The position numbers were made by a program, and so were the translations under genes. A DNA stretch of 64,000 nt from Cyanidioschyzon merolae (Eukaryota), in NCBI GenBank assembly GCA_000091205.1, contig AP006498.2; one strand, given 5' to 3'. Positions within the stretch are counted from its first letter, which is position 1; the number at the start of each line of letters is the position of its first letter. Below are positions 26,586-51,741 of this stretch, in pieces. Under the pieces are notes generated by a model that saw only the letters and a program-made list of their open reading frames with translations, was not told the DNA's origin and searched no databases.

Positions 26586-27929
26586 TTACATGTGCGACGC
26601 GGGCACCTCATGTGGGCGAGCGCGCCGTCCCCGCGGTCGACGCATTACGAGTCGCACAGGCCGCAACAGAACACGCACCAGCGCCCGCAACAAGTTGACC
26701 AGATATATGCCTGGCTGCGCAATAGCAACGATAAGCGCAATGAGCCGCGCAAGCAATGTTTGCGTGCCCTGCGGATGCGGATAGAACGGAAATCCCCGAA
26801 AGTACAGTTTTGCGGCTTCGTAATGAATAGCAACCATCGCCTGCAGGGTTATCAGCGGATATACGAGCAGGCAGAGGACCATATTCATTGCGGTCAACTC
26901 AACCCGATGTAGTTTCAAACTGGCACCAAAAAACTTTTGGAATCCGCTTGGGGATGCGGATGCATCTCCGTTCGCTGTCGGTTGCCGCTGCAGGAGCTCA
27001 ACGAAGACTCGCAGCTGCCGGCACCCTGGCTGAGAGAATAACCATCTGTACTCGATGCCCTCCATCGCAATAAACGGTGAAACATGGAATTCCTTCGGAT
27101 GCACGACACTGATCACAAAGCACGGCGAGGAGGGCGTGCCCCCGTTCAGCGACGCACCGCTATCGACTCGCGACATGGGTCGCGGGCACCATCGCCAAGC
27201 CGAGGCGGAAGAAGTGCCCGTGGAGGCCGCCGCCGCCACCTCCTGCGAAGAGGCCCCTTCGACTGCCGCTGCCGTTGTTGTCACCGAGGAGCACGCGTGC
27301 CGCTTCTCGTTGCCAGCGAGTTTGTGATAACGATCGCCATCGGTTGCCGGCTGGATACAATCCTCGTTTTCGTCGTCTGGTGGCATCTGGGCTGCATCGT
27401 TGAGACTATTCGTCCGCGAAAACGGTGGCCATGCAACTGAAGAATATTCTCTCGCACGAAGCACATATGCATGCTGTTCAAACCATGGGATATTATTCAC
27501 CTCAGCCACAATGTATTCGACATTTTTCCCGTCTTCGTCGAGAATATAATAGAAGGATACCGGGTTGAAGGCGATGCCGAGGTAAGTGAGGTGCGTCAGC
27601 AAACAAACCCGTCCTTTGGGGGCACTTTCAAGGCGCAGTTCACGCTGCACATAGCGCCGCACAGCAACAGCGAGTAGTTCCGCTTCAGAACCAGCTCCAA
27701 GTGCTGACTTTTCAGGGCCCAGCTCTCGCAGGTGGTGCTTGCTGCGAAACCATGCCACTGCTGGCAACCAGCGCCTTGCACTAAAAAGCGGCCACCAAGG
27801 AAACCGCCAACGCTCCCTCGCCAACTCGTCCAAGTCCAAATAAACCATAAAAAGTGCATAGGAGAACTGGTACGCAGCCGGGTAGCGCCGTGAGTGCGTG
27901 ACGCTCCCACAGTAGAGCGCGGAACGCAT
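26586..27929 (-). CDS. DUF1365 family protein (the partner protein found next to amine-oxidase and CFA-synthase genes in bacteria)
   Basis: The first ATG of the long ORF is at 27929, and the ORF 26586-28337 contains a translated CAG-repeat poly-Cys upstream. The DUF1365 signature is present: LYCGSVTHSRRYPAAYQFSYALFMVYLDLDEL...LTHLTYLGIAFNPVSFYYILDEDG...EVNNIPWFEQHAYVL...EFHVSPF. Confidence 0.7.
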   Translation of the reverse strand: MRSALYCGSVTHSRRYPAAYQFSYALFMVYLDLDELARERWRFPWWPLFSARRWLPAVAWFRSKHHLRELGPEKSALGAGSEAELLAVAVRRYVQRELRLESAPKGRVCLLTHLTYLGIAFNPVSFYYILDEDGKNVEYIVAEVNNIPWFEQHAYVLRAREYSSVAWPPFSRTNSLNDAAQMPPDDENEDCIQPATDGDRYHKLAGNEKRHACSSVTTTAAAVEGASSQEVAAAASTGTSSASAWRWCPRPMSRVDSGASLNGGTPSSPCFVISVVHPKEFHVSPFIAMEGIEYRWLFSQPGCRQLRVFVELLQRQPTANGDASASPSGFQKFFGASLKLHRVELTAMNMVLCLLVYPLITLQAMVAIHYEAAKLYFRGFPFYPHPQGTQTLLARLIALIVAIAQPGIYLVNLLRALVRVLLRPVRLVMRRPRGRRARPHEVPASHM

Positions 27930-28163
27930 CGCAGCGCGCCCGGCAACGACCGACGATCGAGTCGCCCGCCAAAACGCTGTCAACGTGGATTTACTGCAGT
28001 ACCAAAACACTTGGAAGAAAGAACGAAGCACGTACGTACGCACGTAAACAAAATAGCCCTTGGCTTCGATACCAACGCGTATCACTGCAGAAGCGCCCCG
28101 GCAGACATGCGCTGAGAGGCATCCGGCATCTACGGTGTACCGCCGCCGCTGCGAGTACGCCGG

Positions 28164-28164
<1 letters not shown>

Positions 28165-28191
<27 letters not shown>
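28165..28191. repeat. (CAG)9 microsatellite
   Basis: cagcagcagcagcagcagcagcagcag; it translates as poly-Cys or poly-Leu in spurious ORFs. Confidence 0.9.
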
Positions 28192-28194
<3 letters not shown>

Positions 28195-28334
28195 CCGCGC
28201 CATCCGCAGGGCAGCGTACGGAGCGGCAGGCACTGGTGCGATCGCTGTCCAATGATGGGCAGTTTCTCGAAGACGAAACGTTCACGTGGACCATGGATCC
28301 CAGATTGTGGGGTAGATATTCGCGCTGGGGAAAG

Positions 28335-28660
28335 CATCCACGAATCTGTACTCTGCCTTCAAGTTCGGTTCCTTACTCTTGCTCTAGGATATTCTGGTGG
28401 TTTTGTACGTAATATCGAGCGTCGAGTGCCTGCTCTGAGTATCCACGAAACTGTACTCTGCCTTCAAGTTCGGTTACTTACTCTTGCTCTAGGATATTCT
28501 GGTGGTTTTGTACGTAATATCGAGCGTCGAGTGCCTGCTCTGAGCATCCACGAATCTGTACTCTGCCTTCAAGTTCGATTACTTACTCTTGCTCTAGGAT
28601 ATTCTGGTGGTTTCGTACGTAATATCGAGCGTCGAGTGCCTGCTCTGAGCATCCGCCGGA
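28335..28660. repeat. 105-bp tandem repeat array, about 3.1 units, forming the subterminal region of transposon copy c2
   Basis: The unit catccacgaatctgtactctgccttcaagttcggtt(c/a)cttactcttgctctaggatattctggtggttt(t/c)gtacgtaatatcgagcgtcgagtgcctgctctgag starts at 28335, 28440 and 28545. One diverged unit lies in each c1 TIR, one at 38700-38800, and a partial unit at 57790-57840. Confidence 0.85.
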
Positions 28661-29244
28661 GCGGTTATATATCGCTGGTGCAGATGCATCATAGAGACGG
28701 AAATGCTCTGCCGTACCACTGGGGGTGTCGGCTCGAGGTATCTTTAAATCAGCACGGAATCGGAGTACGTAATCATTCGGGGAGTCAGCAAGCTGCGTAG
28801 ACATACCTACTGCCTGAGGCAGCACGGCGCGGTATACGAAGATACTACGGCAAGCAGGGCGACGCCGAGACGCAGCATACCCGCTCCTGGTCCCAGAATG
28901 AACTGCGTTGTGGACGAGTTGCTCAGCTCTTGCTCCAGCGCTAGGCATTGGGCGGGCCTGACGTACGAGCTTGAGAGACATGTCCGGCTCGCGGTGCCTA
29001 CCGCCGAAAAGGTAAACTTTCGAAACTATGCGAACCTTCTCCCCCTTTTTCAAAGTTTATCGTGGAGGGCGAGACAAATCGGTATCTCGTTGCTAGTCTG
29101 TGGATAGTTTCTATACTATTTTCTAGATAGCGCTGTCGATACGCGCACCTCCATATCTGGCAGGCATGATGTACGATGCTCATGTCGCTGTTGGAAGGAA
29201 ACGCGATCTTGATATTTCGCTTGTTGCTCTAACGGACAAGCTGT

Positions 29245-31586
29245 ATGTGCGCTGATGTCGTAGCAAAGTCTAGCTTTTCAGTTCCATTGTGTTTCGACCC
29301 CCAAGTCTGTGTACTCAAATGCTTTTTCGCGGTTTACAGCAGAATTGTTCGAACAGCGTTCTTTTTCAAAAACATAAAAAAGGAAAGTTCTGGAAATCGA
29401 AGTGGAGGATCCTGGAGACGCAGTATCGCCGGCTGCCAGAAAAAACAAAAAACAGTGCCGAGCAAAGACGAACAAGATAAGACCATGAAGCAAAAAGGGG
29501 TGGGGTGGTCCGACGTCAGGATCTGCGCGAACGACGACAGAACGACGAGACGTTCGTGAAAGCGTGTCTTCTTGGCCATACCAAGGATCCGTACAAGCAA
29601 AAGTTGCAAGAGGCCACAAGAAACCGTGTCGAGTCGCAATCGATGAGTGTTATATAGGCGTCGTCAGGAGAAATGCATTTAGTGAAGGACATAAATCGCG
29701 ATGTGACGGATGTCAAAACAGTCTAGGCTCCGGAGGATTTTTCAGCGAAAGCTTTATTCATCATCTGATGGTTTGCACAGGGAAACGTCGAGGAGAAATG
29801 AGCATGTGCACGCTCTCCACGAAAATTACGCCAAATGCCGCTTGAAGGGTGCTCGATACAAGGCTGACTCGCGTATTTACGAACACGGGACGATGAAGCA
29901 CCTCACGAACCTGGAGAATCGCGTGATCGTGAAACCCGAACGCTCCATGATACGCCCCATCTTTGCGCTGTACCCGGGCCCGTCTCGCAAAGGGATACGG
30001 GCCATCGTCGGTGGCATCACGATCGATAGTAGGCATGCGTGGGAGATCGAGTTTGTCGAAAAGAAGACATCACGCAGAAGAAAGAATGAAGGTTCTGTAA
30101 TCCGTGCGGCTACTCGAGAGCATCGTGCGGTCTTGGGGCTAGTCGACCCAGCAGAAAAGGTATCAGGATCGAAAGAAGATGAAGAAAGATGGGATCACCT
30201 CATGCTGCGCTATTTCGTGTTTTTCGGACCGAGAACTCGAACGCAAGGCCGAAAATGAGCAGGGTGTGGATGCAAATGAAGCGTCGGAGACGCGGAAGGC
30301 TGAGCTTCTGGAGAAGCGCTTCAACGTCGTTCTGTTATGCGAGATCAAGTCACATTTTGTGACAGTCGACTCCAGAGCCCTTGACGGCATCATGCAGGAG
30401 ATCAGTTCGGGGTTAGGTGTCAGCACGAACGAGGTTACGGGCGAAAACCGGGAAACTCATTGAAGGAGTATCATCGATTTCAAACTTCTCAAAACGAGCA
30501 AGAAAAAGGAATTTACGGGGATGTTCGAAAGCGATGGGGTATCCATATGTCGACACTATCGGCGCTTGAAGGCAGACCGTCCAGTTCGGCCCTCGGCTTC
30601 GTCCTCGGCGAACCATGAAGAAAACAAGGAGGCGGATCCTGCGACGCAGGAGGTGGAGGAGAACGACTTTATGGTTGGCGCGGCGAAGCATAAAGATGGG
30701 ATGGAGGCGGGTCCTTCGCCGCAGGACATAGAGGATACCGACTTGTCGCTGGCGCAGACCCCGGAAACACAAAGATCATAACTATCGCTGTGTCCATGCG
30801 TGCGGAAGATGGTAACGAGGGTAACTTACGTCGGAGAGACATGCGTCTGTGGAGGTTCTCGAGAGCAAGAGACTAAAGAGAATCCGGTATAATGAATGCG
30901 AGGAAGAACATCGAGATGTGGAATGCAGGAATGAAAGAGCACCTGGAAACTATGAGCCAGGTGACGAGCCGCGGAGCGGACTTGAAATCTTTTCTGAAAT
31001 CCATGGAGGTTCGCGTTGCTCATTGGGAGGCGCTGTGAAAAGAATATACAAAACCCCGGTGGGCTCGTCTGCGTATGAATCTGTACAGTGGAAGCAGCGG
31101 GCATTCGCGAATTTTTTCAATGAGTTGAGCGCCTTGAAGGAGGATGAAAGTCAGAGGCTCGTAGTAGCATACGGAGCAGGACGATGGAAGACCCAACAAG
31201 GGACTACGCCAGCTCCAACGACGAGAATGTATAACGGGTGTGCAAGGCGTTTCGCTACGATACCTGTAGATGGATTCCGAACGTCCTCTACACACCATGA
31301 ACTGGGCTGTACACTTCAGAGGGCAGAGGTGGAAAAGTGCCAGCGGAGCCCTGAGGCTATAAAAAAGTACGGACCGCTGACGGAAGAGCAAATGGAAACG
31401 AGGGCGAAACTTCGAGGATTGCTTGCACTAGTGCGTACAAGCGGCGACAAGAAATGTATGGAGTTTGTTAACCGAGACTTTCACGCCGCTATCAATATAA
31501 GGAGATGCGCGGTGATCGAAAGAAGACCCCCCAGAGTTGACAAGAGAGAATTTTGTGGGGGAGCCTCTCAAAGTGGAATTATATGA
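29245..31586 (+). pseudogene. TnpB/Fanzor-like RuvC nuclease pseudogene (c2), split over at least 4 frames by frameshifts
   Basis: ORF fragments 29710-30258, 30179-30463, 30521-30781 and 30849-31586 are collinear with the c1 frame. The RuvC-I position reads FMVGAAKHKDG, an Asp-to-Ala change (codon 30683-30685). The RuvC-II region reads VVAYGAGRWKTQ. A TS/Zn-ribbon remnant is FRTSSTHHELGC..EKC..KKC. RuvC-III reads NRDFHAAINIRRC (Asp codon 31476-31478). Confidence 0.6.
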
Positions 31587-31645
31587 GAAAAAGTTGGAAC
31601 CAGTAGTAGGTAGCCGGTCCAAAAATACTGGGAGGCGTCTGCGCG

Positions 31646-32185
31646 TCAGCCGGAGACCTCTTGTCTAGGGCGCGGGTCACTCGCCACTACTGAACACCGC
31701 TGGCGGCAACGTTCTTCTTTTGAAAGGCGTTTGCTTTGCTTTGTCAAATAGCATGGATGTGGTCGCTGTACTGTACATACCCATTTTTCTCGGATTTCGG
31801 ACGCGCTGGATGGACGCCTTTTCAAGTTCGATTTCTGTTTTATGCATCCACGATTCCTTGGGTAGCATGTCGGCACCGTTTGCACCGCGAGCGTGCCCGC
31901 AGACCTAAGCGCGCCTTTCCATTCTCTCGTGCACGCGGGCGGGTAGCTAGAGACCAGTTCAGTAATCGTGAAGTGAAAGAAAGCCTCGTCGGAGAACTTT
32001 GGTGTACCGGATGCAAACGACTCGTCTATTGATACGTCAGCGTCAAATTCGCGTTTGTCAGAAGAATAGATGCCTGCAACTGGATTGACGCACATAGAGC
32101 GAGCATACACGCAGAGGAGTTCAAAGACAGTCTCAGCTATGTCTTCCGTGACCCCTTTTGAATGAAGCTCTATGGCAGTTTCCAA
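31646..32185 (-). CDS. hypothetical ORF; a possible gene fragment continuing, with a frameshift, into 32207-32416
   Basis: A 179-aa ORF of non-repetitive composition abutting the c2 3' end. No domain was recognised. Confidence 0.2.
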   Translation of the reverse strand: METAIELHSKGVTEDIAETVFELLCVYARSMCVNPVAGIYSSDKREFDADVSIDESFASGTPKFSDEAFFHFTITELVSSYPPACTREWKGALRSAGTLAVQTVPTCYPRNRGCIKQKSNLKRRPSSASEIREKWVCTVQRPHPCYLTKQSKRLSKEERCRQRCSVVASDPRPRQEVSG

Positions 32186-33285
32186 GACCAGGAGCGAAGA
32201 ATGTGGTCAGGAGAAGCCATGAGGAATGATTCGATGACGGGCGAGACGATGGACGATCCCGTCTTGCTGGTGACTTCTCGACGGGCGTCCGACTGAATCA
32301 CCGCTAGAGCTCCTGTTATCGTCATGCTCGCCTGGCTCTTCTTTAAGAACAGCGGATTGCCCCTCTTTTTGTGTACTCACGTACACGCCGACCATTTCTC
32401 CCGAATCAAGTCTCATTTAGTGACATGAACACCCGTGATTCCTATAAAACAGTCCCGTTACAGAATGAAATCGATTAAGTGCTGTTTTCAGGCACAATGG
32501 TCTCGCATGGAAGCACGCTTGTCTCGCGGGCGACCCGGTTCTTGTCATCAACTTTGGTATCGTCGGAACGGAAACGTCACATCCAATGGCTTCTTTCGTT
32601 GTACTTGGAATAGAAGTATACCAGGGGATGGATTTGCGAGGAGTCTATCATGATGATATAGTGAGAGCGGTTCTGTTTTGGATGCACGGCATTCAGGATC
32701 AGGGTGACCACAAGGCTGGTTCATCCGCCCGCTGACCGTAGAATGACTGACTTGAACAGTTAAAGCCGGTTTTCGCAAGCTACAACTGTCAGTGTAAAGT
32801 TTGTCAGTGAGCGTTCTCCAACTTTACGGGTACATTCATGTTGTTGCATACCTGCGAGAACTGCAAGCGAAAACACAAAGCGCGTACGAGATCGGGTCCT
32901 TCCAGCGTACTCTGTTCTGAGGTCTGCGCGACAACGCTTTTGGATTGCGCGTTCGTTAGCACAAAGTGGACAGTGTTTCACTGCGGAAAACAGCTCGAGG
33001 ATTGGCCATACGATTTTCGCAAAGAACGATAACGTGCCGCTTGCCAGCACCAGCGGAATTACTTGTACATAAAAGCTTTTACAAGGCGAAACCGCTCACC
33101 GCAAATCGGCACCAAACATATCCTCAGGTTCGGCAGTGTTTCCGCTGCAACGTGACGCCGCCGCAATATCCATCAATTTCTACCCGTTTCCTCATAATCA
33201 TTCAGAGTCACGGCACCAGCAGCAGCTGCTGACGTTTGTGAGAACTGTCTATCTCCGGCCCGGAACCGGTTCCCTGCGGTCAGCT

Positions 33286-36200
33286 ATGTCGTCGCTAGCC
33301 GGCAGCAGACCGCAAGCTCGTCGCTCGGACACGACGCAACCACGACAGCCACTGCACGAGACACCGGTGCGTTCGACGGTGTTCCAGAGCCTACTCGAGT
33401 GCGTGCCAGAGAGCACTTGGTCCGTGGAACTCGCCCGTCTTTGTGATGAGCTTTCCACAGAAGAACCTTGTGACCTGACAGGGCCTTTGGACCAGACAGA
33501 AGCAGCGGTTTCACCGCGCACGCAGGCTGAGCACAGCGAGCCGCGCTCCGCAGACCTCCACAGCTTCACCAGCGAGACGCTGGAAAGCTTCCTCACCAAG
33601 CTCAATACAAGCGTCAAAGTATTAGAAGACGACTGGCTATGCCCTGCGACGGAGCTCGGGGACTCGCTTCAAGTAGCCGCTGAGGCATTCCAGCGCCTTC
33701 GAGCGAACACAGCGCGATGGTTCCTCGGAAGCGCCGTTCCGGACCAGGCGCTCGGGTCTGCTGTACGAAGGTTGCTCCGCCTGTATGCAATTGCAAAACA
33801 GGCGCACGGATACTTTGAGCACCTCGGTGTGCTCAGCGAGGAAGCAGATACGCTTGATCGGGCGCTTGCAGAAGGCAGCATCGACTTGCGAAGCGCATGG
33901 GAGATTTGGGAACGGCTCCACCGGGAGAAAGAACTGCTCGCCGAAGAATTGGCGATTGAATGTGAGTTTTCAACGGTATCGTGCTCAGCGCCAACGAATG
34001 AAACGGAAAGTGAGCGGGAGCAGCTCCAAACGGTGCTGACACAAAGGTGCGAGAAGCGAATCGCAGCGAGGATACAGCAGGCGTGCCGCTGGCGGCTGCG
34101 AGATCTGGTCCCCAGCCTAGAGCAGCATCCGGAAGATATTCACGTGATTGTCGCGATTTTCAAGGAGGAACCTCAATTGCTCGCTCACCTGTTTCCCGAC
34201 GTGATCCGAGAGGCCATCAGCCGGCGAGCTGATCATCACGAGCGATCCATCGTTGGTGCAGCGTCGGAAGCGGAGCACGCTGCGGAGACCGGCGCTCCTG
34301 AGCGTTCGCCAGGCGCGCACTGGCTGCGGGAGGTGCTCGCTGACCTGGATGCAAGGAACACCTCGGAGCAGAATGCGAGCCCAGAACGGAGCGCGCCTAG
34401 CCGCGCAGAAGAATATGGCACCGCCGCCGCTGCCGTCGCATCGAAAGCGCAAACATCAGAGTCGGCAAGCAGGTTGTCTCTCGAGTCGGTCTCGCGGGAA
34501 CCGGAAGAGCCGCAATTCGTTGCTCGAATGCTTCAGCGATGCGAGCTCCTCATTGAAGACATACGGATCGTGCAGAAGCATGTCGCAGCGTTGGGGGAAC
34601 CAGCATTTCCGCTGGATCGCTGGTACGCCCTGGAAACGAACCAAATCATGAACGCAGTCTTCTGGGGCATCATTACTCGCGCAAGTCTGATCCCGAGCAG
34701 AGATATCCTGGACCTGCTGGGGTGGATTCATCGCTATCGCGACTTTCTCCAACAAACCTTTCCCATGCTTGACCCCGAGGGCTCTGCGTCGCCAGCCGGG
34801 GCACTGGTCTGGGATCGCACCCACCAGGAGACACTAGTGCGCGGCCTGGACATGCCCGCTGAGCGACTTATCGAAGGCTATGCGGCACGTGCACTCGAAA
34901 TGATGCGTCGATGGATTCGTAACTGTATCAAGGTGGACACCGAGGGTCCAGTCGATGTTCGTGATGACGATGGATCGCTTTACACGCAAGGCCCGTTGGA
35001 TGTCTTCCGCATCGTGAACGACGAAATGACCATCGTGCAGGAGCGCCTCGAGCTGGGCAACCCACGCTTTGTTCAATGCATCAGCGATGCGTGCTGTGCG
35101 GCTCTGCTCGATTACCGCACCTGGTCTCTGGATGCACTTGAAGGCACGGAATCAGAAGACGGCGCACTCGAGAGATTTTGCGCAACGGTGAATAACCATC
35201 GACGCTGCGAGTCGCTGGCGGCGCAGTTTGCAACGCGGTGTCACACGATCCTAAACCAGGCGGTTTACGGCCTCGGCGACTGGGAACGGGAAACGAGCGC
35301 GACGCCCCAGACACCGACACAGGTGCCTGGTCCGTCGCCAGGTACCGCTTGTGCTCGCGAGTCAGAGGCACTGAACGAGACGACCTATGTGCTGGCAGTG
35401 GACAACCTCGCCGCTCAGTTTGCAGTCTCAGCCGAGTTTGCAGCAACGCGCGTCTGCAACGTCATTTTCGAGGATATGGACGATGCCCCTGGTTTATGGC
35501 CAAGACTGTACACACCAGCGTGGATCTCGGGCGAAGAAGAGATCGCCAATAGCATTGTGGCTACTGTAGACGACTTTTTCCACGACATCGACACGTACCT
35601 GCGCGTGGAGGTTGATCGTGCGCTGGTCGGGAGCGAATGCGCCACCCGCGTTGCCGATCGCTACGCAGCGGCGCTGGCAAGCTACCTGGGTGCCACGGGG
35701 GCTGCGCCCGAGGTCGGCGACGCCCAGCGTGCATCGCCAGAGGCGCTGGATCCAGCGGGCGCCACCCCGCCGCTCCTTGGTCCAAGATCGCGCGATCGCA
35801 TCGCGCAGCGCATCGCTGGTGGAAGCTCCAGCCGCCTGCTCCAGGTGCGTGCCGCCGGCTCCGAGGATGCGCGTCAGGGCAGGCGATTTCGTGACGCGCA
35901 CCCAGTCGCCAACCTCGATCGGCGCATGGTCGAGCGACTGCGCAAAGACTACGGGATCCTGGCGGCGCACTTTTTACACGCACGTCGTGGCGGCTCGCAC
36001 GCACGAGTGGTGCGTGCACTCGCTGCGATCGACGCGATCGCTGATATGCTGGCGGCTGCATTCGCGAACAACGCGGATGCGGTTAGCGTACATTTCAGTC
36101 ATCTGTTGGATGCGCGACTGAGTCGACACACCTTGTACTTATGGCAGCCGAGTACCGTAGAGCGCTTGCTGGTTGCAGTCGCCGAGGCAACGGAACGGAC

Positions 36201-36300
36201 GAATGCGCTGGATACCTGGAAGGAGGCAGTAGCAGCGTGCAGGCGCGCGTGGAGTGCCCGTGAGCAGCGTGACTGGGGCGAGCAGCCAGTGAGCTCGTGA
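33286..36300 (+). CDS. exocyst complex component Sec6 (EXOC3)-like tethering-complex subunit
   Basis: The ORF starts with GTG at 33136, and the first ATG is at 33286. RLIEGYAARALEMMRRWIRNCIKVDTEGPVDVRDDDGSLYTQGPLDVFRIVNDEMTIVQE aligns with the Sec6 core (KLVEGTLVLWFQNLLEADKQPPVRETDGKLYTPLAVIVFQMLNQQVQVISE in human EXOC3). It is a long, probably helical protein, and the stop codon is TGA. Confidence 0.55.
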   Translation: MSSLAGSRPQARRSDTTQPRQPLHETPVRSTVFQSLLECVPESTWSVELARLCDELSTEEPCDLTGPLDQTEAAVSPRTQAEHSEPRSADLHSFTSETLESFLTKLNTSVKVLEDDWLCPATELGDSLQVAAEAFQRLRANTARWFLGSAVPDQALGSAVRRLLRLYAIAKQAHGYFEHLGVLSEEADTLDRALAEGSIDLRSAWEIWERLHREKELLAEELAIECEFSTVSCSAPTNETESEREQLQTVLTQRCEKRIAARIQQACRWRLRDLVPSLEQHPEDIHVIVAIFKEEPQLLAHLFPDVIREAISRRADHHERSIVGAASEAEHAAETGAPERSPGAHWLREVLADLDARNTSEQNASPERSAPSRAEEYGTAAAAVASKAQTSESASRLSLESVSREPEEPQFVARMLQRCELLIEDIRIVQKHVAALGEPAFPLDRWYALETNQIMNAVFWGIITRASLIPSRDILDLLGWIHRYRDFLQQTFPMLDPEGSASPAGALVWDRTHQETLVRGLDMPAERLIEGYAARALEMMRRWIRNCIKVDTEGPVDVRDDDGSLYTQGPLDVFRIVNDEMTIVQERLELGNPRFVQCISDACCAALLDYRTWSLDALEGTESEDGALERFCATVNNHRRCESLAAQFATRCHTILNQAVYGLGDWERETSATPQTPTQVPGPSPGTACARESEALNETTYVLAVDNLAAQFAVSAEFAATRVCNVIFEDMDDAPGLWPRLYTPAWISGEEEIANSIVATVDDFFHDIDTYLRVEVDRALVGSECATRVADRYAAALASYLGATGAAPEVGDAQRASPEALDPAGATPPLLGPRSRDRIAQRIAGGSSSRLLQVRAAGSEDARQGRRFRDAHPVANLDRRMVERLRKDYGILAAHFLHARRGGSHARVVRALAAIDAIADMLAAAFANNADAVSVHFSHLLDARLSRHTLYLWQPSTVERLLVAVAEATERTNALDTWKEAVAACRRAWSAREQRDWGEQPVSS

Positions 36301-37083
36301 TGAAGGCAGCATCGGTGATAGACTAGTATTGCAGGTGTCAGACGAGCTGCACGTTTGCGAAGACTCTGCAGGAGATTCGTTTCGAGGAATCGAGCAGTGC
36401 AGCGATTTGTTGCGCAGGCATCCGACCGCATTGGCCGGAAGGGCAACGCGTTCGACAGAAAGGCCCCGTTCCCTGGTTTGGGTGCGTGGTAGCTCGGCAA
36501 AACGGTCCCGGTTGGGGTATGCGCTCCAGCTTCCGCACGATCAAGGTGCCTATTTTTGTTGTTCTTGTTGGTGCTACTTTTGTTGCACGCGCTATCGGCA
36601 ACAACTGTGTCGTGTCGGGTGCTTCGTAGCGCATCGCTTTCTCGACAGCTGCTGCTCATGCATGCTATTGCTGTCGAGGAGAAGGGCACGTTTTGGACAC
36701 ACACGTGGCAGGCAGCGAATCGAAGCGCTTCGCGATCGTTCGTGAACCTGCTGCTCGGCGGATTCAGAGAGCGCGGCATTGTGGAGCTCTTGCGCGGCGG
36801 GCACACGCATTACACGCCCGAATCCACGCACAAATGTGACGCATTGGTGGTTACACCCGAGACGACAGGGAACCCATCGCGACGAGCGCCGCACGCTCGA
36901 CATGAAGACGTGAATTATCGCTTAAAAATACGCCCCCAACAACATGCGATCAAAGAACATGCACGTAGCCGCTGTGTCATTTCCGTGACACGAAACGATC
37001 GTTGAACACATCGAATAGAACTAGGTAAGCGATTCATACCCGAAAACAAGATGAACGCTAGAAAATGTCATGTAGCGTTGCGA

Positions 37084-38307
37084 TCACGGGGCAGAGAGCC
37101 GCATGGATTCAGTACCTTGATCATTCGCATCGTTTGCGTTCGGAAAGCGGCCTTGTTCGTCGTCGACAGCCTGCTCACAGTCCTCTGCTTCTGAAAGGCT
37201 CTCATGATCCAACTCATCTTGGATTGCTCTCTGTGCCGCTCTGGTAATCATCATAATCAACAAAATCATCGAACCTATACTTAATAAACGTAGGAGATTT
37301 TTGGGGCCGCGGTGCCTAGCCAGTGCAGCATCGGCTTCAGTGACAACGTCTGCACCGTTCTGTTTCGCGGGGTTCGTCGACCAACGCAGCTGCGCGCCGA
37401 TCGTCACAAGCAAAATGATGCCAGGCAGAATGCCGAGAATTGTACCTAGACAAAAAGAGCCAATCTGCACCTGCGACACGCCCATAGCCATGGAAGATAA
37501 GGCGAACGGAAACAGCGGGCTCAGCCGCATGAGGGTCACGAAGCGTAACGCCTGACGTGATAGCGCCCGATTGACCGCTAAATACGTGTTGCGCCGTTCC
37601 GAATTCTCAATCAGGCGCTCCATTCTTTCGCGGAGATAATAGCGAGACGTGTACAGACAGAGCAGCGCAGCGGCCAGATGGCAGCACAGAGCAACCGCAA
37701 TCCCGCAGACGAGGCCGAAGAGCATACCCGCGCCGATCGCCATGAGCCAGGCAGGAAACTCAAGGGCGGCTAGTATGATATACATGGAAGCGTAACTAAC
37801 AAGTCGCAGTGGCCATGGAAGACCTCGCATCCAAGATACAGCCGCAGAAAACGCAAACGCGACCTGTTTGTGTAGCACGAGCAGCACGACGCCGAGCGCA
37901 AGCACCGCAGTTACCGCAGTGACGAGAACCCAGAGATTCGCTCTTCGCTCGCCGACACAGACGCTTGGATTGGTGCGCATATCGAGCACATCAGTGCTCG
38001 CCGAACAGCCCACGGAGACGTCGGTGTGATCGGCGACGTGACCTGAGGGCTGCGTGCGCTGCCGCCCCCGTACAGGAGCACGACTCGTTCTTGCTCCGAG
38101 TACCGCTCCTCGTCCAGAATCTTTGGGTTTCAGCAAGTCGCCAGCGAGCGCAAAATCGCTCCGAGAGAGCGAACGACTGCGAACGAGAACGCCAGCGCTT
38201 TCCAAACCCGGCTGCCGACTCACTTCGGTACCAGTGAGCGCCGACTGCGCAGATGTGCTCCGCGACCGCCGGTGTAAGACCGGCTCCGTTTCGACACTGG
38301 GTTTCAT
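37084..38307 (-). CDS. TVP38/TMEM64 (DedA/SNARE-associated Golgi protein) family membrane protein
   Basis: The ORF starts with GTG at 38388, and the first ATG is at 38307. The family core is present: ILAALEFPAWLMAIGAGMLFG...YLAVNRALSRQALRFVTLMRLSPLFPFALSSMAMGVSQVQIGSFCLGTILGILPGIILLVTIGAQL. Confidence 0.7.
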   Translation of the reverse strand: MKPSVETEPVLHRRSRSTSAQSALTGTEVSRQPGLESAGVLVRSRSLSRSDFALAGDLLKPKDSGRGAVLGARTSRAPVRGRQRTQPSGHVADHTDVSVGCSASTDVLDMRTNPSVCVGERRANLWVLVTAVTAVLALGVVLLVLHKQVAFAFSAAVSWMRGLPWPLRLVSYASMYIILAALEFPAWLMAIGAGMLFGLVCGIAVALCCHLAAALLCLYTSRYYLRERMERLIENSERRNTYLAVNRALSRQALRFVTLMRLSPLFPFALSSMAMGVSQVQIGSFCLGTILGILPGIILLVTIGAQLRWSTNPAKQNGADVVTEADAALARHRGPKNLLRLLSIGSMILLIMMITRAAQRAIQDELDHESLSEAEDCEQAVDDEQGRFPNANDANDQGTESMRLSAP

Positions 38308-38624
38308 AGAAACATACGAGACAGTACCGCTCCACCCAAACAACCGGCGAAGAGGCGTATCGGTGCACACGCGCACACAGACGCACACCCACGTTCACGG
38401 AAACGGTTCCCACCGAATGCGATGCAACCCCCGACGCTGATGCGTCAGCAGGTCTGCGCGCGTGCCCTACCCCGGTTTTATCTCAGGGCGGCGGAGCGCG
38501 TCGATCACCGGCTGCCTGGTGCGCGAAGCTGCGGTATCGCCGCAGTCGCCGCCTTCAGTGTCGTCGGTAGGCGCCAGATGAGCACTTCTTGGTACACAGG
38601 AACGGCGGTTTGCAGAGGAGGCCC

Positions 38625-38805
38625 CGCTGAATGATTTTTTTTGATGGACCGGACGTTGACATGCACCATGGATCCCAGATTGTGGGATGGATACCGGTGA
38701 TCGAAAGAGCGTTCATCATGCTGCACTCTATGTTCCAGTTCCATTGGTCGTACGTTTTCTCCGATATACTGGTCGTTTCGTACGTTCTACATTGCACCGT
38801 GTGCA
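38625..38805. repeat. solo terminal fragment of the c1-c3 transposon family (terminus motif plus one 105-bp-type unit)
   Basis: CGGACGTTGACATGCACCATGGATCCCAGATTGTGGGATGGATACCGG matches the c1 and c2 termini. It is followed by a diverged subterminal unit (tggtcgtttcgtacgttctac). Confidence 0.6.
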
Positions 38806-38813
38806 AGCAGTTC

Positions 38814-38849
38814 GCGCCTGCACCAGCGCCTGCACCAGCGCCTGCACCG
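38814..38849. repeat. (GCGCCTGCACCA)3 minisatellite
   Basis: Seen directly in the sequence. Confidence 0.9.
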
Positions 38850-39136
38850 TTGGTACGGACGCAGCACGCAGGTGGTGGGTAAGCGTTGCCGCACGCTGGT
38901 GGGCATCGGCTCCACATGCGATGCCCCTGATGCGCAGTCGATAGTCCTCGTCAGTTTGTGCGGCAAAATTTGGATTTCCTTTTCGGGATCAGAGTCGTTA
39001 CCATAACGCGTGATCATAAGATGCGAGATAAGTATCGGTATCCAACGCTGCACTCCAGAACGTTGACGGTGCTGTAGGGTCGCCTGAACGAGGCACGGGA
39101 TCCCCGATTTTCGACGGTGTTGATCGCCGTCGAGCG

Positions 39137-42100
39137 ATGCGCTCCGATCCGAAACGTCGAGCACAGTGTCTGTGTGGCTTGCAGGGGGTCATGCGCAGGC
39201 CGCCAGCGACTTTTGTGGTGCCAAGTAGGGCGATCAGGAACACCGGAGAAAACGTAGAATATAGAAACAGCTTGAGCGTGGAAAATCTGGGAAAGCATCT
39301 ATGGAAAGAACGTCGGCAACGAAGGCGCTACGTGCCGCCGCTTCCAGACGCGAATCGGCACTCGAGGCAACGAGTGCCTGTTGCACCGGCACGCTGCCGG
39401 GGGTTGCTCCTGTGTTGTCAAGATTGCAGCGAGTATGAATTGAAGTCGTTCGTCGACAGAGACGAAGACGAGCACGGAACTGGTGGTGGACGCGGCGAGT
39501 CCAGCGGCTCGCGCTCGTCACCGAACTTTATATCGTGGCGACAAGTGGATCGAGCCCAGCTTACCCCGCTGTTTCGCCACTTTCTCTCGGTAAAGGATCG
39601 ATTTCCCGACGCAGTGATCCTTTACCAGTGCGGTGACTTTTTTGAGACATTCTTCGATGACGCGGTGGTTTTACATGAGAAACTTGAGCTTGCCCTTACT
39701 GGAAAGGACGCGGGAAAGGAGGTCGGTCGGGTGCCCATGGCCGGTGTCCCGCTATCCTCTCTGGACCGCTACTGTGCTGCGCTCCTGGAACATGGATATC
39801 ACGTCGCTGTCGTTGAGCAGGTGGAGCCAGCCAACGGGCGTTCTGGTGGTGATGGCGCTCTCGTGCGTCGCGAGGTTACCCGAATGCTGACCCCCGGCAC
39901 CGTTCTCGAGGAAGGCCTTCTGGATGCTCGCTCCAATAACTACCTCGTCGCGTTATGGGGCCAGCGCCTGACATCAGTACGGGGCGACGTGGATCGCCGA
40001 TCGCCCTCCAAATCCAGTAGATGTACAGCGGATGCTACCAATTGGTTGTTTGGCCTCGCATACCTGGACGTATCCACGGGTGATTTCGGATCGACCGCTG
40101 TCGAGAATGATGTGGAGGATCTTCAGGCGGAGCTCGGACGACTGCATCCCGCAGAGGTGCTGCTAACCGATGATATTTCTGAAGAGGTTTCCAGCTGCCT
40201 CGAGGGTGTTCTGGAGCGCACGTTCACCACGAATGGATGGAGAGCGTCGATCACCCGGAGGCCCCGCGCATTTTTTGATCTGGAATGTGCCCGGAAACGA
40301 ATCGAGGAGCGCTTTGGATCCCAGCTGGATAGCGTCTTTGATGAGAGGCAGCTCAAGAGTATCGTCCAAATTCGGGTGATCGGAGCGCTCCTCGCGCTTG
40401 TCAACGAAACCCTGGAGCGCGCCCAAGCACCCATCGCTTTTGCAATGCCCCAAACAGCAGCAAATGCAACACCATTGGAGCCTATTGTTTCGGGAAACCT
40501 GCTCACTCCATTGCAGCCACCAAGGCCCTACCAGATTCAAGGAAGCATGATGCTCGATGGAACAGCACTCCGCAATCTGGAAATCGTGCACCCGGCCCGG
40601 GACAGTCGCAGCCGCCGTGGCACACTGCTCTGGGCGATGGATGCAACGGTCACCGCTATGGGTGCCCGACTCTTGCGTCGCTGGCTCCTGCGACCGAGCC
40701 GGGACCTCGAAACCATCCGGTATCGACAGCAGCAGGTGCAGCGGTGGCAGCGCGACCATCTCCAGCGTGAACGCCTGCGTCGACTCCTGCGCGGTGTTGC
40801 CGATATAGAGCGCCTCGCGGGAAAAGTTGCCACCCGGAGAGCGAATCCCCGGGAACTTTATGCTCTCGCCGCATCTCTCTGCCGGTTGTCGACGCTTCTT
40901 TCCGAGGTTGAGGCGCGAATAGGCGCAGGCACTGGTTCTGCTGAAGCTCCCTGCTGGCCTGCAGCGGCGAGCAGCGCTACCAAGGATCTGATCAAACTCG
41001 CCCATCAAGTCGTATTCGATGCCTTTCTGACGCGGGATAAGGAAGAGGGTTCTCCGAGCGCCTCTGAAAGCGCTGTTGCTGGCAGCACGCTGCGAGGTCG
41101 CGAGCCACGCGGCGTTGCGCTTTCACCACCGCCGCCCTACGGAGTGCCAGTCCGTCTGCCGAGTGCTGCTGAAGATCGACCCATCTTTCGCAGCGGCTTC
41201 CACGCGGAACTGGATCTTTTGCGCGAACAAGCTGCAGGCGATCTCGCCTGGATCACTGCCTATGAAGCGCAGGAACGTGAACGCACCGGAATCGCAAGCT
41301 TGAGGGTCAGCTATCATAATGTCTTCGGATATTATATCCAGATCCCGAGTCGTTTCACGAACCCCTCGAATACATCTCAAAACGGCCGCTCGCAACCGAC
41401 TGCGCTGCCCACAAACTACGTGCGTCGACAGACGCTCAAATCCGTTGAGCGGTACGTCACACCCGAGCTTCGAGAACGGGAGCAACTGATCCTCGGTGCA
41501 CGAGCACGAGTCGCTGCGCTAGAGTGTCGCCTCTTTTACGACCTGCTCGAGCAATTCGGTGCTGCAATCGACACCATACGCAGCATGGCGTCGTGGGTGG
41601 CGGAGCTGGACGTACTGCTGGGTTTCGCTGAAATCGCCCTCGAACGCAACTATACCATGCCGGAGGTCGTGGATTCGTCAGACCCGGTAAGCGGTCGACT
41701 CGTGGACATCGAGGATGGGCGGCATCCGGTGGTCGAGTGCACGCTGCCGCCCAACGAGCGCTTTGTGCCCAACTCGCTGCGTATAGGTGACGGAACCGTT
41801 GATATGGTGCTCCTCATGGGCGCGAATGCCTCAGGCAAGAGCGTTTTCCTCCGCCAGGTCGCTCTGATTCAGATCATGGCCCAGTGTGGCTCGTTCGTGC
41901 CAGCGAAACGTGCTCGACTGGCGCTCACAGACCGCATTTTTACCAGAGTCGGAGCGGCCGATGACATCGCCGCCGCAAAGTCTACCTTTGTGATGGAGAT
42001 GGAGGAAACCGCCACCATTCTGCGCCACGTTACACCAAACTCACTTGTTCTTCTTGACGAGGTCGGACGGGGTACTTCAACCGCGGACGGTCTAGCGATT

Positions 42101-42550
42101 GCGCAGGCCGTGACCGAGTACCTGGTAAGCGAGGCAGTGCGAGCCCGGGGTATTTTCGCCACCCATTTCCATGAGCTGGCACAGCTCGAGCATGCCTTTT
42201 CCAATATAACCTGCTTTCACATGGCCGTGATTGAGCGCTACCCAACTGGAAACGTCGAGCCTGCTATCGTTTTTCTCCATCGCCTTGAACGGGGCGCCGC
42301 GAGTCGCTCCTTCGGGATCGAGGTTGCCCAGCAGTGTGGGCTTGTTGCGGCCATTGTACAACGTGCTCGTGAGCTCGTTCGGGATGACTCGTCAGCGAAC
42401 CACGAGCCGCCAAAGGGCCCGGGGACGGCCACGGAGGCTGCGCAGGCCAGCAACGTGAAAGTGCAGGTTCAGCGGATGCAGCCGAGACGATGGCGACCGC
42501 GAAACAAACCCAGCGATCTTGATGCTGGTTTCTGTGCAGCTCGGGTTTGA
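39137..42550 (+). CDS. mutS: bacterial-type DNA mismatch repair protein MutS1, probably the organellar MSH1-like protein
   Basis: The ATG start was verified. Domain I is LYQCGDFFETFFDDAVVLHEKLELALTGKDAG...VPMAGVPLSSLDRYCAALLEHGYHVAVVEQVE. The protein also contains GRHPVVE. The ABC ATPase region is LLMGANASGKSVFLRQVALIQIMAQCGSFVPA...DRIFTRVGAADDIAAAKSTFVMEMEETATIL...SLVLLDEVGRGTSTADGLAIAQAV, which is near-identical in pattern to E. coli MutS. The ~140-aa Arg-rich N-terminal extension may be a presequence. Confidence 0.9.
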   Translation: MRSDPKRRAQCLCGLQGVMRRPPATFVVPSRAIRNTGENVEYRNSLSVENLGKHLWKERRQRRRYVPPLPDANRHSRQRVPVAPARCRGLLLCCQDCSEYELKSFVDRDEDEHGTGGGRGESSGSRSSPNFISWRQVDRAQLTPLFRHFLSVKDRFPDAVILYQCGDFFETFFDDAVVLHEKLELALTGKDAGKEVGRVPMAGVPLSSLDRYCAALLEHGYHVAVVEQVEPANGRSGGDGALVRREVTRMLTPGTVLEEGLLDARSNNYLVALWGQRLTSVRGDVDRRSPSKSSRCTADATNWLFGLAYLDVSTGDFGSTAVENDVEDLQAELGRLHPAEVLLTDDISEEVSSCLEGVLERTFTTNGWRASITRRPRAFFDLECARKRIEERFGSQLDSVFDERQLKSIVQIRVIGALLALVNETLERAQAPIAFAMPQTAANATPLEPIVSGNLLTPLQPPRPYQIQGSMMLDGTALRNLEIVHPARDSRSRRGTLLWAMDATVTAMGARLLRRWLLRPSRDLETIRYRQQQVQRWQRDHLQRERLRRLLRGVADIERLAGKVATRRANPRELYALAASLCRLSTLLSEVEARIGAGTGSAEAPCWPAAASSATKDLIKLAHQVVFDAFLTRDKEEGSPSASESAVAGSTLRGREPRGVALSPPPPYGVPVRLPSAAEDRPIFRSGFHAELDLLREQAAGDLAWITAYEAQERERTGIASLRVSYHNVFGYYIQIPSRFTNPSNTSQNGRSQPTALPTNYVRRQTLKSVERYVTPELREREQLILGARARVAALECRLFYDLLEQFGAAIDTIRSMASWVAELDVLLGFAEIALERNYTMPEVVDSSDPVSGRLVDIEDGRHPVVECTLPPNERFVPNSLRIGDGTVDMVLLMGANASGKSVFLRQVALIQIMAQCGSFVPAKRARLALTDRIFTRVGAADDIAAAKSTFVMEMEETATILRHVTPNSLVLLDEVGRGTSTADGLAIAQAVTEYLVSEAVRARGIFATHFHELAQLEHAFSNITCFHMAVIERYPTGNVEPAIVFLHRLERGAASRSFGIEVAQQCGLVAAIVQRARELVRDDSSANHEPPKGPGTATEAAQASNVKVQVQRMQPRRWRPRNKPSDLDAGFCAARV

Positions 42551-43147
42551 GATTGTCTGCTCGTGAACTAGGAGCATTCGAGGAATCGTGAAACCGAACC
42601 TTGATAGAGACACGTGTATGCGTGTGTGTTGCTCGACAACGGAGGTATGCATCGTTGCGTTGGTGCTTCAGTCCACTGCATCAAGTTGTTCCAAATGATA
42701 ACCCACGGAAGCGAGAGTCTGGGCGGAGCTTTTCATGAACGGCGTTCACCAAACTGGACCATGGATGCTCCCAGATATTCAAAGACGAGAATGAAGTGCG
42801 GAACGGGTACAATGCATGTGGGCTGGGGGCGACGCTGCGCACCGCACTGCGGACGCGCTTTCCAGCATACCACGGGAAGACGTGTAATCTCCATACGACT
42901 TCTGAAGGGATGTTTTTGAACGTTTGGAGTACGACGCAAGGAGCTCGCGGCTCCCATACCTGTGCCAGATTAGAATGCAACACTGAAGTGCTGGCTCTGT
43001 TCCAGCCTGTCGATTTTTTCGATCCCGAGGATAGATGTACAGTTTCGAGATTTCGAGTGGAGCGAACAGAGCTTACATGTCCACACGTCGTTCCGCACCG
43101 CTCGGTGTTTCATTCGGGAGGGTGAGTTGCTTCGAGCCTGTGACTCT

Positions 43148-43948: not shown

Positions 43949-44462
43949 TGGCCTCGGCAGAAGCGCGCGTGCTGGACATGTGGGCAATACCTGGTCACGG
44001 GAAAGTGTCACCAACGCGCAAAGCGCACCGTTGCTGTATACAAGGAAGATAAAAATAGCGAACAGAGCCTAAATCACCAATACCGCATGTGCATCAAGCA
44101 CGTCGAGAATAGCCGGAAGCGGCGCACTCGAACACTGCCAGCAATATCCCTCGATTGCCGACATGAAAGGCGGAGCGAAAAAAAGAGACCTACATCTTTA
44201 AAGTCGGACACAGGAGAGAAGGCAAAACCAATCAGCCGTACAAAAATCCAACACGGGCTGGTGTTGATGGCCATGAAAAAAAAGTCCCAGACTTGAGTAT
44301 CCACCCGTACTCGACAACTTGTCCTATGTTGAATCTGACATGAGCGGTATTGCTCGCGCCGCCTGCGCTGCGAGAAACATTCAACCCGAAACGTCTCAGC
44401 TTCCGCTTCAGCCGTGGCGTCGCTGTTCGCTTGGAGCCGGATTATCGACGAGAAGCCCGAAC

Positions 44463-50605: not shown

Positions 50606-50639
<34 letters not shown>

Positions 50640-51512: not shown

Positions 51513-51741
51513 CCGCGGATGCAGGCTGCTACGGGTCCGGCGCTGTGCGGCAGCTGCGCTCGTACCAGCGTCAAATGGAATACCGACCTGCTCGCTCAGT
51601 TCGTGGCTTGCGCATCTCTTCTGAAATATTTGCCGATGTACAGCCTCGATACTACAAGTGCAGATATGTGGGCTTGCCGAATCATGCGTAGATTTCGGTT
51701 TCGTGGTCGTCTAGTCGCAGGAGCTCCCATGCTGCTCTGTC

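Follow-up and report, generated by a model that had tools for sequence, protein, structure and literature searches.

Dead copies of a probable Fanzor1 transposable-element family in Cyanidioschyzon merolae: loss of the relocated RuvC glutamate, and a repeat junction that mimics a RuvC-I lesion

This study examined a window of 64,000 nt (the whole stretch of DNA analysed) from contig AP006498.2 of the Cyanidioschyzon merolae assembly GCA_000091205.1. It carries three copies of a Fanzor1 pseudogene (c1, c2 and c3), all on the + strand, with extents determined by frameshift-aware alignment, for c1 against both the family consensus and the intact homologue P0001. The elements and shared tracts are as follows.

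3683-7518, + strand: c1, whole element, a Fanzor1 pseudogene flanked by two long inverted arms
~4643-6771, + strand: c1 Fanzor1 pseudogene
~29455-31656, + strand: c2 Fanzor1 pseudogene
~58632-60826, + strand: c3 Fanzor1 pseudogene
29190-31415 in c2, equal to 58367-60592 in c3, + strand: near-identical tract, from sliding-window identity and alignment
38653-38789: solo fragment of the ~620-640 bp 5' module

Copies c2 and c3 share 93% identity across 2.65 kb, and each is about 72% identical to c1. Sliding-window identity between c2 and c3 was 96-100% within the near-identical tract and just 52-76% beyond it, and the central lesions are common to both copies because this 2.2-kb tract is so similar; it probably arose by gene conversion or recombination between copies already decayed. 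The inverted arms of c1 (3683-4321 and 6880-7518) span 639 nt at 97% identity, corresponding to a BLAST match of 617 nt at 98%. Inverted arms were looked for at L001, the locus of P0001, and none was found, which makes the long arms a peculiarity of c1 and no general trait of the family. An exact-product look-up of two ORFs of the window (60005-60943 and 33136-36300) returned no record.

An earlier, sequence-only reading had taken the copies for TnpB/Fanzor1-type genes, and both profile and fold searches place them with Fanzor1. A profile of 85 relatives (A2) gave significant PDB matches to Fanzor1 proteins only, namely PpFz1 (9cf0, 2e-23), SpuFz1 (8gkh, 8e-17) and GtFz1 (9cer, 3e-12). The full 85-sequence profile was needed, as a five-sequence profile had no match in the PDB; phmmer with the stitched c2 protein against PDB sequences gave chance matches only (E = 2.6), and Pfam returned just a sub-threshold DUF7607 for the stitched c1 and c2 proteins and just a sub-threshold Cas12f1-like_TNB, covering RuvC-III, for intact homologues. 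The AlphaFold model of P0001 (pLDDT 82.6, pTM 0.81) had structures of SpuFz, PpFz and GtFz as its top seven Foldseek matches (E 7.5e-17 to 6e-14; target-normalised TM up to 0.72), with Cas12 and TnpB matches at E of 4e-3 or above; that to ISDra2 TnpB (PDB 8H1J) was weak and partial (E = 0.023, 273 columns).

In the profile alignment, the family's D, E and D align with residues 777, 935 and 1000 of the SpuFz1 chain, which, after subtraction of the MBP-tag offset of 394, are D383, E541 and D606, the metal-coordinating residues of that enzyme (PMC10432273). Eight positions (P0001 numbering) are invariant in all 85 relatives: D484, P485, G623, E656, D725, N727, A728 and N731. The DPG of RuvC-I has its D, on SpuFz1 D383, in 85 of 85 and its PG in 84, and the RuvC-III Asp, on D606, is likewise present in all 85. 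In the P0001 model the relocated Glu lies in a loop after the strand 650-654 and D725 opens the helix 724-737, an arrangement that agrees with the published description of the Fanzor active site (PMC11423790). The family combines a DPG Asp, a Gly at RuvC-II, a relocated Glu and a RuvC-III Asp with the overall Fanzor1 fold (WED, extended REC, RuvC).

The likeness to the solved Fanzor1s SpuFz1, PpFz1 and GtFz1 (PDB 8GKH, 9CF0, 9CER) extends from profile and fold to individual motifs (DPG, Gly at RuvC-II, Glu in D-E-[FY]-[RK]-T-S, R-D at RuvC-III) and to a multi-copy, transposon-borne habit. Unlike them, the family has a variable 25-aa tandem-repeat linker directly before RuvC-I, is only 12-16% identical to them in sequence, and is represented in the window by pseudogenes without the Glu (c3 also without the RuvC-III Asp). 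Between the relocated Glu and RuvC-III, none of the 85 aligned relatives has the C4 zinc finger (CxxC...CxxC) that belongs to the Fanzor/TnpB signature of Bao and Jurka (PMC3627910), and a CxxC follows the E-[FY]-[RK]-T-[ST] motif in only 4 of 149 representatives, whereas SpuFz1 has a CCCC finger (PMC10432273). With ISDra2 TnpB and Fanzor2 the family shares the RuvC fold and the D..E..D order, but it lacks both their zinc finger and the canonical RuvC-II Glu (Gly replaces the TnpB1 residue in 85 of 85), its protein is far larger, with a Fanzor1-type REC region, and no sequence match to them was significant. Searches for RNA gave no Rfam match in the whole 64,000-nt window, and RNAalifold, applied to the c1, c2, c3 and L001 3' ends, where an omega RNA was sought, gave a covariation term of +1.69, which lends such an RNA no support.

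The family comprises 2765 clusters at 50% identity (E <=1e-3), many of its database homologues being ORFs called in prokaryotic style on eukaryotic contigs from metagenomes, and some of these homologues may be decayed copies. It is conceivable, though we would put it forward only tentatively, that this is an undescribed Fanzor1 subclade, marked by an invariant D-E-D, complete loss of the C4 zinc finger and, at least in its cyanidiophycean branch, the variable disordered 25-aa repeat.

Every peptide quoted in the sequence-only reading was recovered from c1, c2 or c3. The catalytic motifs are listed below.

5860-5886, + strand: c1 RuvC-I, VVGADPKNT; Asp (5872-5874) intact, Gly of DPG changed to Lys (alignment)
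30745-30771, + strand: c2 true RuvC-I, VAGADPGNT; Asp codon GAC (30757-30759) intact (alignment)
59922-59948, + strand: c3 true RuvC-I, VAGADPGNT; Asp codon GAC (59934-59936) intact (alignment)
6283-6303, + strand: c1 canonical RuvC-II strand, AYGAGRW; Gly for Glu, the family norm (alignment)
31167-31187, + strand: c2 AYGAGRW
60344-60364, + strand: c3 AYGAGRW
6376-6402, + strand: c1 IPIDKFRTS; relocated catalytic Glu changed to Lys (AAG, 6388-6390)
31260-31286, + strand: c2 IPVDGFRTS; relocated Glu changed to Gly (GGA, 31272-31274)
60437-60463, + strand: c3 IPVDGFRTS; relocated Glu changed to Gly (60449-60451)
6593-6622, + strand: c1 RuvC-III, VNRDFNSVVN; Asp (6602-6604) intact, AAI changed to SVV
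31467-31496, + strand: c2 RuvC-III, VNRDFHAAIN; Asp (31476-31478) intact, Asn changed to His (31482-31484)
60647-60676, + strand: c3 RuvC-III, VNRASNAAIN; catalytic Asp changed to Ala (GCC, 60656-60658)

The sequence-only reading had noted AYGAGRW without Glu in all copies, and had left it between the rearranged RuvC-II of Fanzors and an older inactivation. The alignment decides for the former: Gly occupies the canonical position in 85 of 85 relatives, and an alternative Glu, the E of VDEFRTS (IPVDEFRTS), stands 33 residues past it in all 85 and aligns with SpuFz1 E541. Replacement of the canonical Glu by Gly or Pro, with use of an alternative Glu, is known for Fanzors (PMC10530073, PMC10711439). 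This alternative Glu, a search for which had been suggested at the time, is absent from c1, c2 and c3 alike, a loss that the sequence-only reading had overlooked; judged from sequence, it appears to be the one catalytic residue that no copy has kept. The codon of P0001 that matches the c1 AAG is GAG. The two lineages lost the Glu through different substitutions, which might point to more than chance; at ~40% divergence it is within expectation.

The RuvC-I Asp is kept in c1, c2 and c3, and the RuvC-III Asp in c1 and c2. The RuvC-III states read earlier (RDFNSVVN in c1, RDFHAAINI in c2, RASNAAINI in c3) stand, as does the intact GADP Asp of c1, and the ancestor that had been proposed, VVGADP...NRDFNAAINI, is read exactly so in intact homologues. 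The His of c2 RuvC-III also occurs in homologues P0029 and P0036. The claim of a different lesion in each copy survives only loosely, in that c1 has Glu-to-Lys, but c2 and c3 have Glu-to-Gly in common.

These changes sit among many others, with no fewer than 6-8 stops or frameshifts per copy, and the disabling lesions are distributed as follows.

c1, stops at 4748, 5476, 6253, 6355 and 6536; frameshifts near 4772, 6313, 6339, 6421 and 6710
c2, stops at 29655, 30461, 30874 and 31036; frameshifts near 29497, 29724, 30226, 30743, 31090 and 31527
c3, from 59403 on, stops and frameshifts identical to those of c2, at 59403, 59638, 59920, 60051, 60213 and 60267

Copy c3 has further lesions in its N-terminal part. 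Counted over the C-terminal 640 codons, stops and frameshifts number 4 + 4 in c1, 3 + 4 in c2 and 3 + 3 in c3, with more N-terminally. All three proteins diverge from P0001 by 39-46% overall; two to three of ten invariant positions are changed per copy, and 25-45% of near-invariant ones. Sequencing error is an unlikely source of the lesions, since host genes in the window have long intact ORFs, up to 1250 aa. One of the genes of the window, coatomer gamma, is 72% identical to that of Cyanidiococcus yangmingshanensis and equally close to a second database sequence, probably from Cyanidioschyzon. By these measures c1, c2 and c3 look like ordinary, non-functional Fanzor1 pseudogenes, and the catalytic changes form only a minor share of their overall decay, with no notable pattern.

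Could loss of a catalytic residue have come first and caused inactivation, for example under host selection against an active nuclease, with general decay following later? The relocated Glu was indeed struck independently, to Lys in c1 and to Gly in the lineage of c2 and c3. The order of events is, however, not recoverable from three copies, the RuvC-I Asp was kept in every one of them, and at 39-46% divergence a double strike on one residue would have a probability of ~0.1-0.2, so that this sequence of events seems improbable. More improbable still is that the copies are functional, or were domesticated as nuclease-dead, RNA-guided DNA binders, and that their lesions are assembly errors or are spliced out. 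Absence of the relocated Glu from all three copies is what a dead-nuclease derivative would display, and some frameshifts do lie within short stretches of a single base (TTT to TT at 30743). Yet each copy has three to five in-frame stops produced by base substitution (e.g. TGG to TGA, TAY to TAA), c2 and c3 have lesions in common at identical positions, and the adjoining host ORFs are long and intact. Moreover, c2 and c3 differ about equally at codon positions 1, 2 and 3 (22, 23 and 30 sites; chi-square p = 0.47), invariant and near-invariant residues have changed roughly in step with the protein as a whole, and cyanidiophycean genomes have very few introns, which counts against splicing.

The remaining point concerns RuvC-I in c2 and c3, where the sequence-only reading had identified GAAKH as the motif with its Asp changed to Ala. 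The placement given above was obtained by alignment with 53 homologues together with frameshift-aware alignment, and the features concerned are these.

30668-30691, + strand: c2 FMVGAAKH, junction of repeat units, not RuvC-I
59845-59868, + strand: c3 pseudo-motif FMVGAAKH, the same repeat-unit junction
30607-30755, + strand: c2 tandem repeat preceding RuvC-I, two 75-nt (25-aa) units
30607-30681, + strand: c2 repeat unit 1; 66 of 75 positions equal the repeat consensus of the homologue locus L001
30682-30755, + strand: c2 repeat unit 2; 74 nt, with a 1-nt deletion at ~30743

The true motif, VAGADPGNT, lies 74 nt downstream of FMVGAAKH, where a 1-nt deletion has moved it into another frame; the frame shifts before RuvC-I in c2 because unit 2 has 74 nt instead of 75. 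Unit 2 matches the L001 repeat consensus at 55 of 75 positions, whereas none of 500 shuffles exceeded 50. The two diverged units of c2 escaped TRF, and both were found by pairwise alignment to the L001 unit. L001 itself has 4.0 copies of the 75-nt repeat, the last one ending at its GADPG, and intact homologues carry one to several '..D[FL].V[DG]A[AT]KHE..' units, with '..VVDA[AT]KHE..' junctions among them and GADPGNT after the last. The first half of the RuvC-I strand is copied at the start of every unit, and, in the cyanidiophycean branch at least, the unit boundary falls inside that strand. In the AlphaFold model of P0001 the repeat region (residues 380-468) has pLDDT <50, and the 25-aa repeat linker is accordingly predicted to be disordered. 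An intron was considered for the 74-nt segment and rejected, since the segment is one of the repeat units, and intact homologues have these units in their proteins. A genuine Asp-to-Ala change, with each copy damaged at another catalytic motif, draws on the resemblance of 'DFMVGAAKH' in the uninterrupted upstream frame of c2 and c3 to 'DFVVGADPKN' of c1, and has next to no probability against the homologue alignment (GADPGNT retained after the last AKHE-type unit), the frameshift-aware alignment (VAGADPGNT 74 nt on) and the match to a DNA-level 75-nt repeat unit with predicted disorder. GAAKH lies outside the catalytic motifs, an outcome that the sequence-only reading had itself named as refuting. 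A motif reading confined to one frame is unsafe here, as the first half of the RuvC-I strand recurs in the repeat and the true motif is hidden by a 1-nt deletion.

The best explanation, in which we have high confidence, is that c1, c2 and c3 are dead copies of one Fanzor1 transposable-element family in a cyanidiophycean red-algal nuclear genome, with CMe-1A as the probable nearest described relative, that their relocated Glu has been lost, and that the RuvC-I Asp-to-Ala change is an artefact. From its family membership, the ancestral protein would have been a Fanzor1 RNA-guided nuclease, with a site presumably formed by the Asp in GADPGNT, the Glu in VDEFRTS 33 residues past the Gly in AYGAG, and the Asp in NRDFNAAINI. 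After inactivation, neutral drift would have let stops, frameshifts and substitutions pile up, some of them at catalytic residues: Glu to Lys in c1, Glu to Gly in c2 and c3, and the RuvC-III Asp additionally in c3.

CMe-1A is a Fanzor1 element of C. merolae, described alongside TE-N2_CMe (Bao and Jurka 2013, PMC3627910). Like these, the copies of the window belong to a cyanidiophycean host and are old, diverged, multi-copy, ~3 kb in length and encode just Fanzor1; their ~620-640 bp 5' module behaves as a separate repeat, present as the c1 arms and as the solo fragment at 38653-38789, comparable to the ~635-bp 5' module of CMe-1A/TE-N2_CMe. As with CMe-1A, decayed copies form the majority, and the database includes some intact ORFs (P0001). 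Unlike CMe-1A, which was described without TIRs (PMC3627910), c1 repeats its 5' module inverted at the 3' end, at 98%. Host taxonomy, the ~3 kb length and the ~635-bp 5' module, rather than alignment, suggest that CMe-1A is the nearest described relative.

The biological weight of the lesions themselves is small, as they reflect neutral decay of transposon-borne Fanzor1 genes, which is already known for the CMe-1A family (PMC3627910). If the proteins without a zinc finger are active, the TNB zinc finger would be dispensable for Fanzor function, and the family alignment, which fixes the relocated Glu (VDEFRTS) of this zinc-finger-less clade, could help in choosing intact proteins for activity assays, P0001 or P0052 among them.

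Self-comparison of the window revealed one element present in three plus-strand copies (c1, c2 and c3) of about 2.6-3.8 kb each, none of which retains an intact reading frame. Copies c2 and c3 were 93% identical across 2.65 kb, and c1 was ~72% identical to either. The sequence-only reading had described a different lesion of the RuvC catalytic motifs in each copy, and every peptide it quoted was found in the three copies, although its placement of RuvC-I in c2 and c3 was wrong:

Copies and quoted motifs (all plus strand)
3683-7518: c1 element, coding homology ~4643-6771
~29455-31656: c2 coding homology, 5' non-coding homology starting at ~28280
~58632-60826: c3 coding homology, 5' homology starting at ~57706
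5860-5886: c1, VVGADPKNT
30668-30691 (c2), 59845-59868 (c3): FMVGAAKH
6283-6303 (c1), 31167-31187 (c2), 60344-60364 (c3): AYGAGRW
6593-6622: c1, VNRDFNSVVN
31467-31496: c2, VNRDFHAAIN
60647-60676: c3, VNRASNAAIN

With a stitched c2 protein as query, 53 proteins were recovered, nearly all from JGI metagenomes and 50-78% identical, with two distant proteins (36% and 28%) beside this set. Intact members read ...DNDFIVGADPGNTNII..., ...RLVVAYGAGRWKT.KGTTPAPTTR..., ...TIPVDEFRTSYTHHELGC... and ...MEFVNRDFNAAINIRKC..., and an exhaustive profile search gave a family of 2765 clusters (50% identity) at E <= 1e-3, and 411 at E <= 1e-30. When 85 diverse full-length members were aligned, ten columns proved invariant (P292, D484, P485, G623, P637, E656, D725, N727, A728 and N731, in the numbering of the intact homologue P0001). 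Neither Pfam nor PDB was reached from single sequences or a five-sequence profile. The 85-sequence profile matched the Fanzor1 structures of Parasitella (9cf0, 2e-23), Spizellomyces (8gkh, 8e-17) and Guillardia (9cer, 3e-12), with no significant PDB match beyond these. Counted along the printed alignment, the family D (DPG), E (DEFRT) and D (NRD) are residues 777, 935 and 1000 of chain 8gkh_P or, after subtraction of the MBP-tag offset of 394, SpuFz1 D383, E541 and D606, which are reported to coordinate two Mg2+ ions (PMC10432273). P0001 was modelled with AlphaFold from the family alignment (pLDDT 82.6, pTM 0.81); the seven best Foldseek matches of this model in PDB were all Fanzor1 structures (E 7.5e-17 to 6e-14, TM <=0.72), with Cas12 and TnpB ranking far below. 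In this model strand 478-485 ends at D484, E656 lies in a loop past strand 650-654, and helix 724-737 starts at D725, a predicted placement that agrees with the published description of the Fanzor active site (PMC11423790).

The catalytic RuvC-I Asp is intact in c1, c2 and c3. The GAAKH of c2 and c3, taken earlier for RuvC-I with Asp changed to Ala, is a junction of repeat units. Upstream of the RuvC-I strand, intact homologues carry one to several 25-aa units, [AT]KHE..K.A.PATQ.V.DND[FL].V[DG]A; in its DNA, the P0001 gene contains 4.0 tandem copies of a 75-nt repeat, the array ending at GADPG, and the repeat region (residues 380-468, pLDDT <50) is predicted to be disordered. The first half of the RuvC-I strand (D-F-x-V-G/D-A) recurs at the end of each unit, the next unit opens with A/T-K-H-E, and D-P-G-N-T is reached only past the last unit. 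Two units were identified in c2 against the unit consensus of L001, the P0001 locus:

Repeat units of c2
30607-30681, plus strand: unit 1, 66/75 matches
30682-30755, plus strand: unit 2, 55/75 matches (shuffles: mean 43.4, maximum 50)

The FMVGA/AKH of c2 is the boundary between them. Unit 2 is 74 nt long, TTT having become TT at ~30743, and the genuine VAGADPGNT (GTC GCT GGC GCA GAC CCC GGA AAC ACA, 30745-30771) therefore lies in a different frame. The same holds for VAGADPGNT in c3 (59922-59948), while the c1 motif was read correctly because that copy lacks the extra repeat unit.

For AYGAGRW, the alternative-Glu option raised earlier was borne out. In Fanzors the canonical Glu is replaced by Gly or Pro, and a Glu ~45 residues downstream, six residues ahead of the zinc-finger position, is used instead (PMC10530073, PMC10711439). 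The Gly is invariant in the family (85/85), and the relocated Glu is E656 in IPVDEFRTS (GAG in P0001), 33 residues past the Gly, likewise 85/85 and aligned with SpuFz1 E541. AYGAGRW without Glu is thus no lesion, a rearranged RuvC-II being the family norm. It is the relocated Glu that is missing from all three copies, and on this sequence evidence they are predicted to be catalytically dead at that position:

Catalytic residues (RuvC-I Asp, relocated Glu, RuvC-III Asp)
c1: intact; Glu to Lys (AAG, 6388-6390); intact (6602-6604)
c2: intact; Glu to Gly (GGA, 31272-31274); intact (31476-31478)
c3: intact; Glu to Gly (GGA, 60449-60451); Asp to Ala (GCC, 60656-60658)

The RuvC-III states had been described accurately for each copy, and the inferred ancestral RuvC-I and RuvC-III matched the intact homologues exactly; together with the Fanzor1 identity and the rearranged RuvC-II, these parts of the earlier interpretation stand, and the RuvC-I lesion of c2 and c3 falls. 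The Asn to His change of c2 was also seen in the homologues P0029 and P0036. This Asn is invariant in the clade, but SpuFz1 has Leu at the position and PpFz1 has Ala; it is therefore unlikely to be essential across Fanzor1 proteins.

Between the relocated Glu and RuvC-III (6388-6602 in c1, 31272-31476 in c2, 60449-60656 in c3), the C4 zinc finger usual at this place is absent clade-wide, with CxxC...CxxC in 0/85 sequences of alignment A2; the cyanidiophycean branch has 'THHELGC...KC' in its place. The D-E-D triad is invariant in the clade despite this.

Compared by published description, the three copies fit CMe-1A of C. merolae (Bao & Jurka), an element ~3 kb long with Fanzor1 as its sole product and ~150 copies, each ~80% identical to the consensus and some still intact, whose 5' 635 bp are common to a separate element, TE-N2_CMe (PMC3627910). 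Inverted arms flank c1 (3683-4321 and 6880-7518; 617-639 nt, 97-98% mutual identity), match that 635-bp module in length (PMC3627910), and are absent at the homologous locus L001. Over its full extent c1 shares only ~72% identity with c2 and c3, where just the left module is present. A 6-bp GAAAAG adjoins both c1 element ends, a candidate target-site duplication.

The 96-100% identity of c2 (29190-31415) and c3 (58367-60592) is confined to a 2.2-kb central tract, which contains all six lesions common to them from 59403 onward. The flanks, the 5' module and the RuvC-III region among them, are 52-76% identical, like the distance of either to c1. Gene conversion or recombination, acting on copies that had already decayed and lie 29.2 kb apart, seems to have produced the tract.

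Other remnants were noted. Between host genes, a solo fragment of ~130 nt (38653-38789) shares 70-73% identity with the outer end of the 5' module of c1 and c2. At 257-1225 (plus strand) lies a fourth Fanzor1-like remnant, diverged far more than the others and matched by tblastn with P0001 residues 480-742 at 434-1225 (26% identity); its ORF 257-643 reads 'LLGVDPVSEHIMAVAV...RARYDRESG', with a RuvC-I-like motif containing DPV. The c2 5' module has a 105-nt unit three times in tandem (28333-28654, 96% identity), with one diverged copy in c1 (3745-3856). Adjoining the c2 5' end, the N-terminal part of a DUF1365 ORF (26586-28337, minus strand) contains a CAG/CTG-type triplet run (28060-28200) encoding poly-Q, poly-L, poly-C or poly-A by frame.

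Genes in the window are eukaryotic, and most consist of one long ORF (coatomer gamma, MSH6-like MutS, Sec6, Utp13, LMBR1). Coatomer gamma was 72% identical to that of Cyanidiococcus yangmingshanensis, 40% to Galdieria and 99% to metagenome contigs; a second 72%-identical sequence (NCBI and JGI) was presumed to be Cyanidioschyzon. These identities place the host among the cyanidiophycean red algae, outside Cyanidiococcus and Cyanidioschyzon. The metagenome contigs are collinear with 34452-51952 (99.4-99.5% identity). At 51952 the match of contigs L002 and L003 ends, and they continue into a DEAD_2/XPD-like helicase gene; the window continues with different sequence, then c3. Possible origins of this break are a strain rearrangement, a breakpoint associated with a TE, or a join made in assembly.

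Decay extends throughout the copies. In a frameshift-aware alignment of the C-terminal 640 codons with the family consensus, c1 had 4 stops and 4 frameshifts, c2 3 and 4, and c3 3 and 3, with more of both in each N-terminal part; several stops are single-base changes from Trp or Tyr codons. Uninterrupted host-gene ORFs of up to 1250 aa in the window argue against sequencing error. Differences between c2 and c3 fell evenly over codon positions 1, 2 and 3 (22, 23 and 30 sites; p = 0.47), and purifying selection has therefore been absent since their separation. Overall the copies have diverged from P0001 by 39-46%, and in each of them 2-3 of the 10 invariant positions are changed, as are 25-45% of the 40 near-invariant ones. 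At such divergence it is within expectation for two lineages to lose the same residue independently. The catalytic-site changes are part of general neutral decay, and c1, c2 and c3 are ordinary decayed members of an element type already known.
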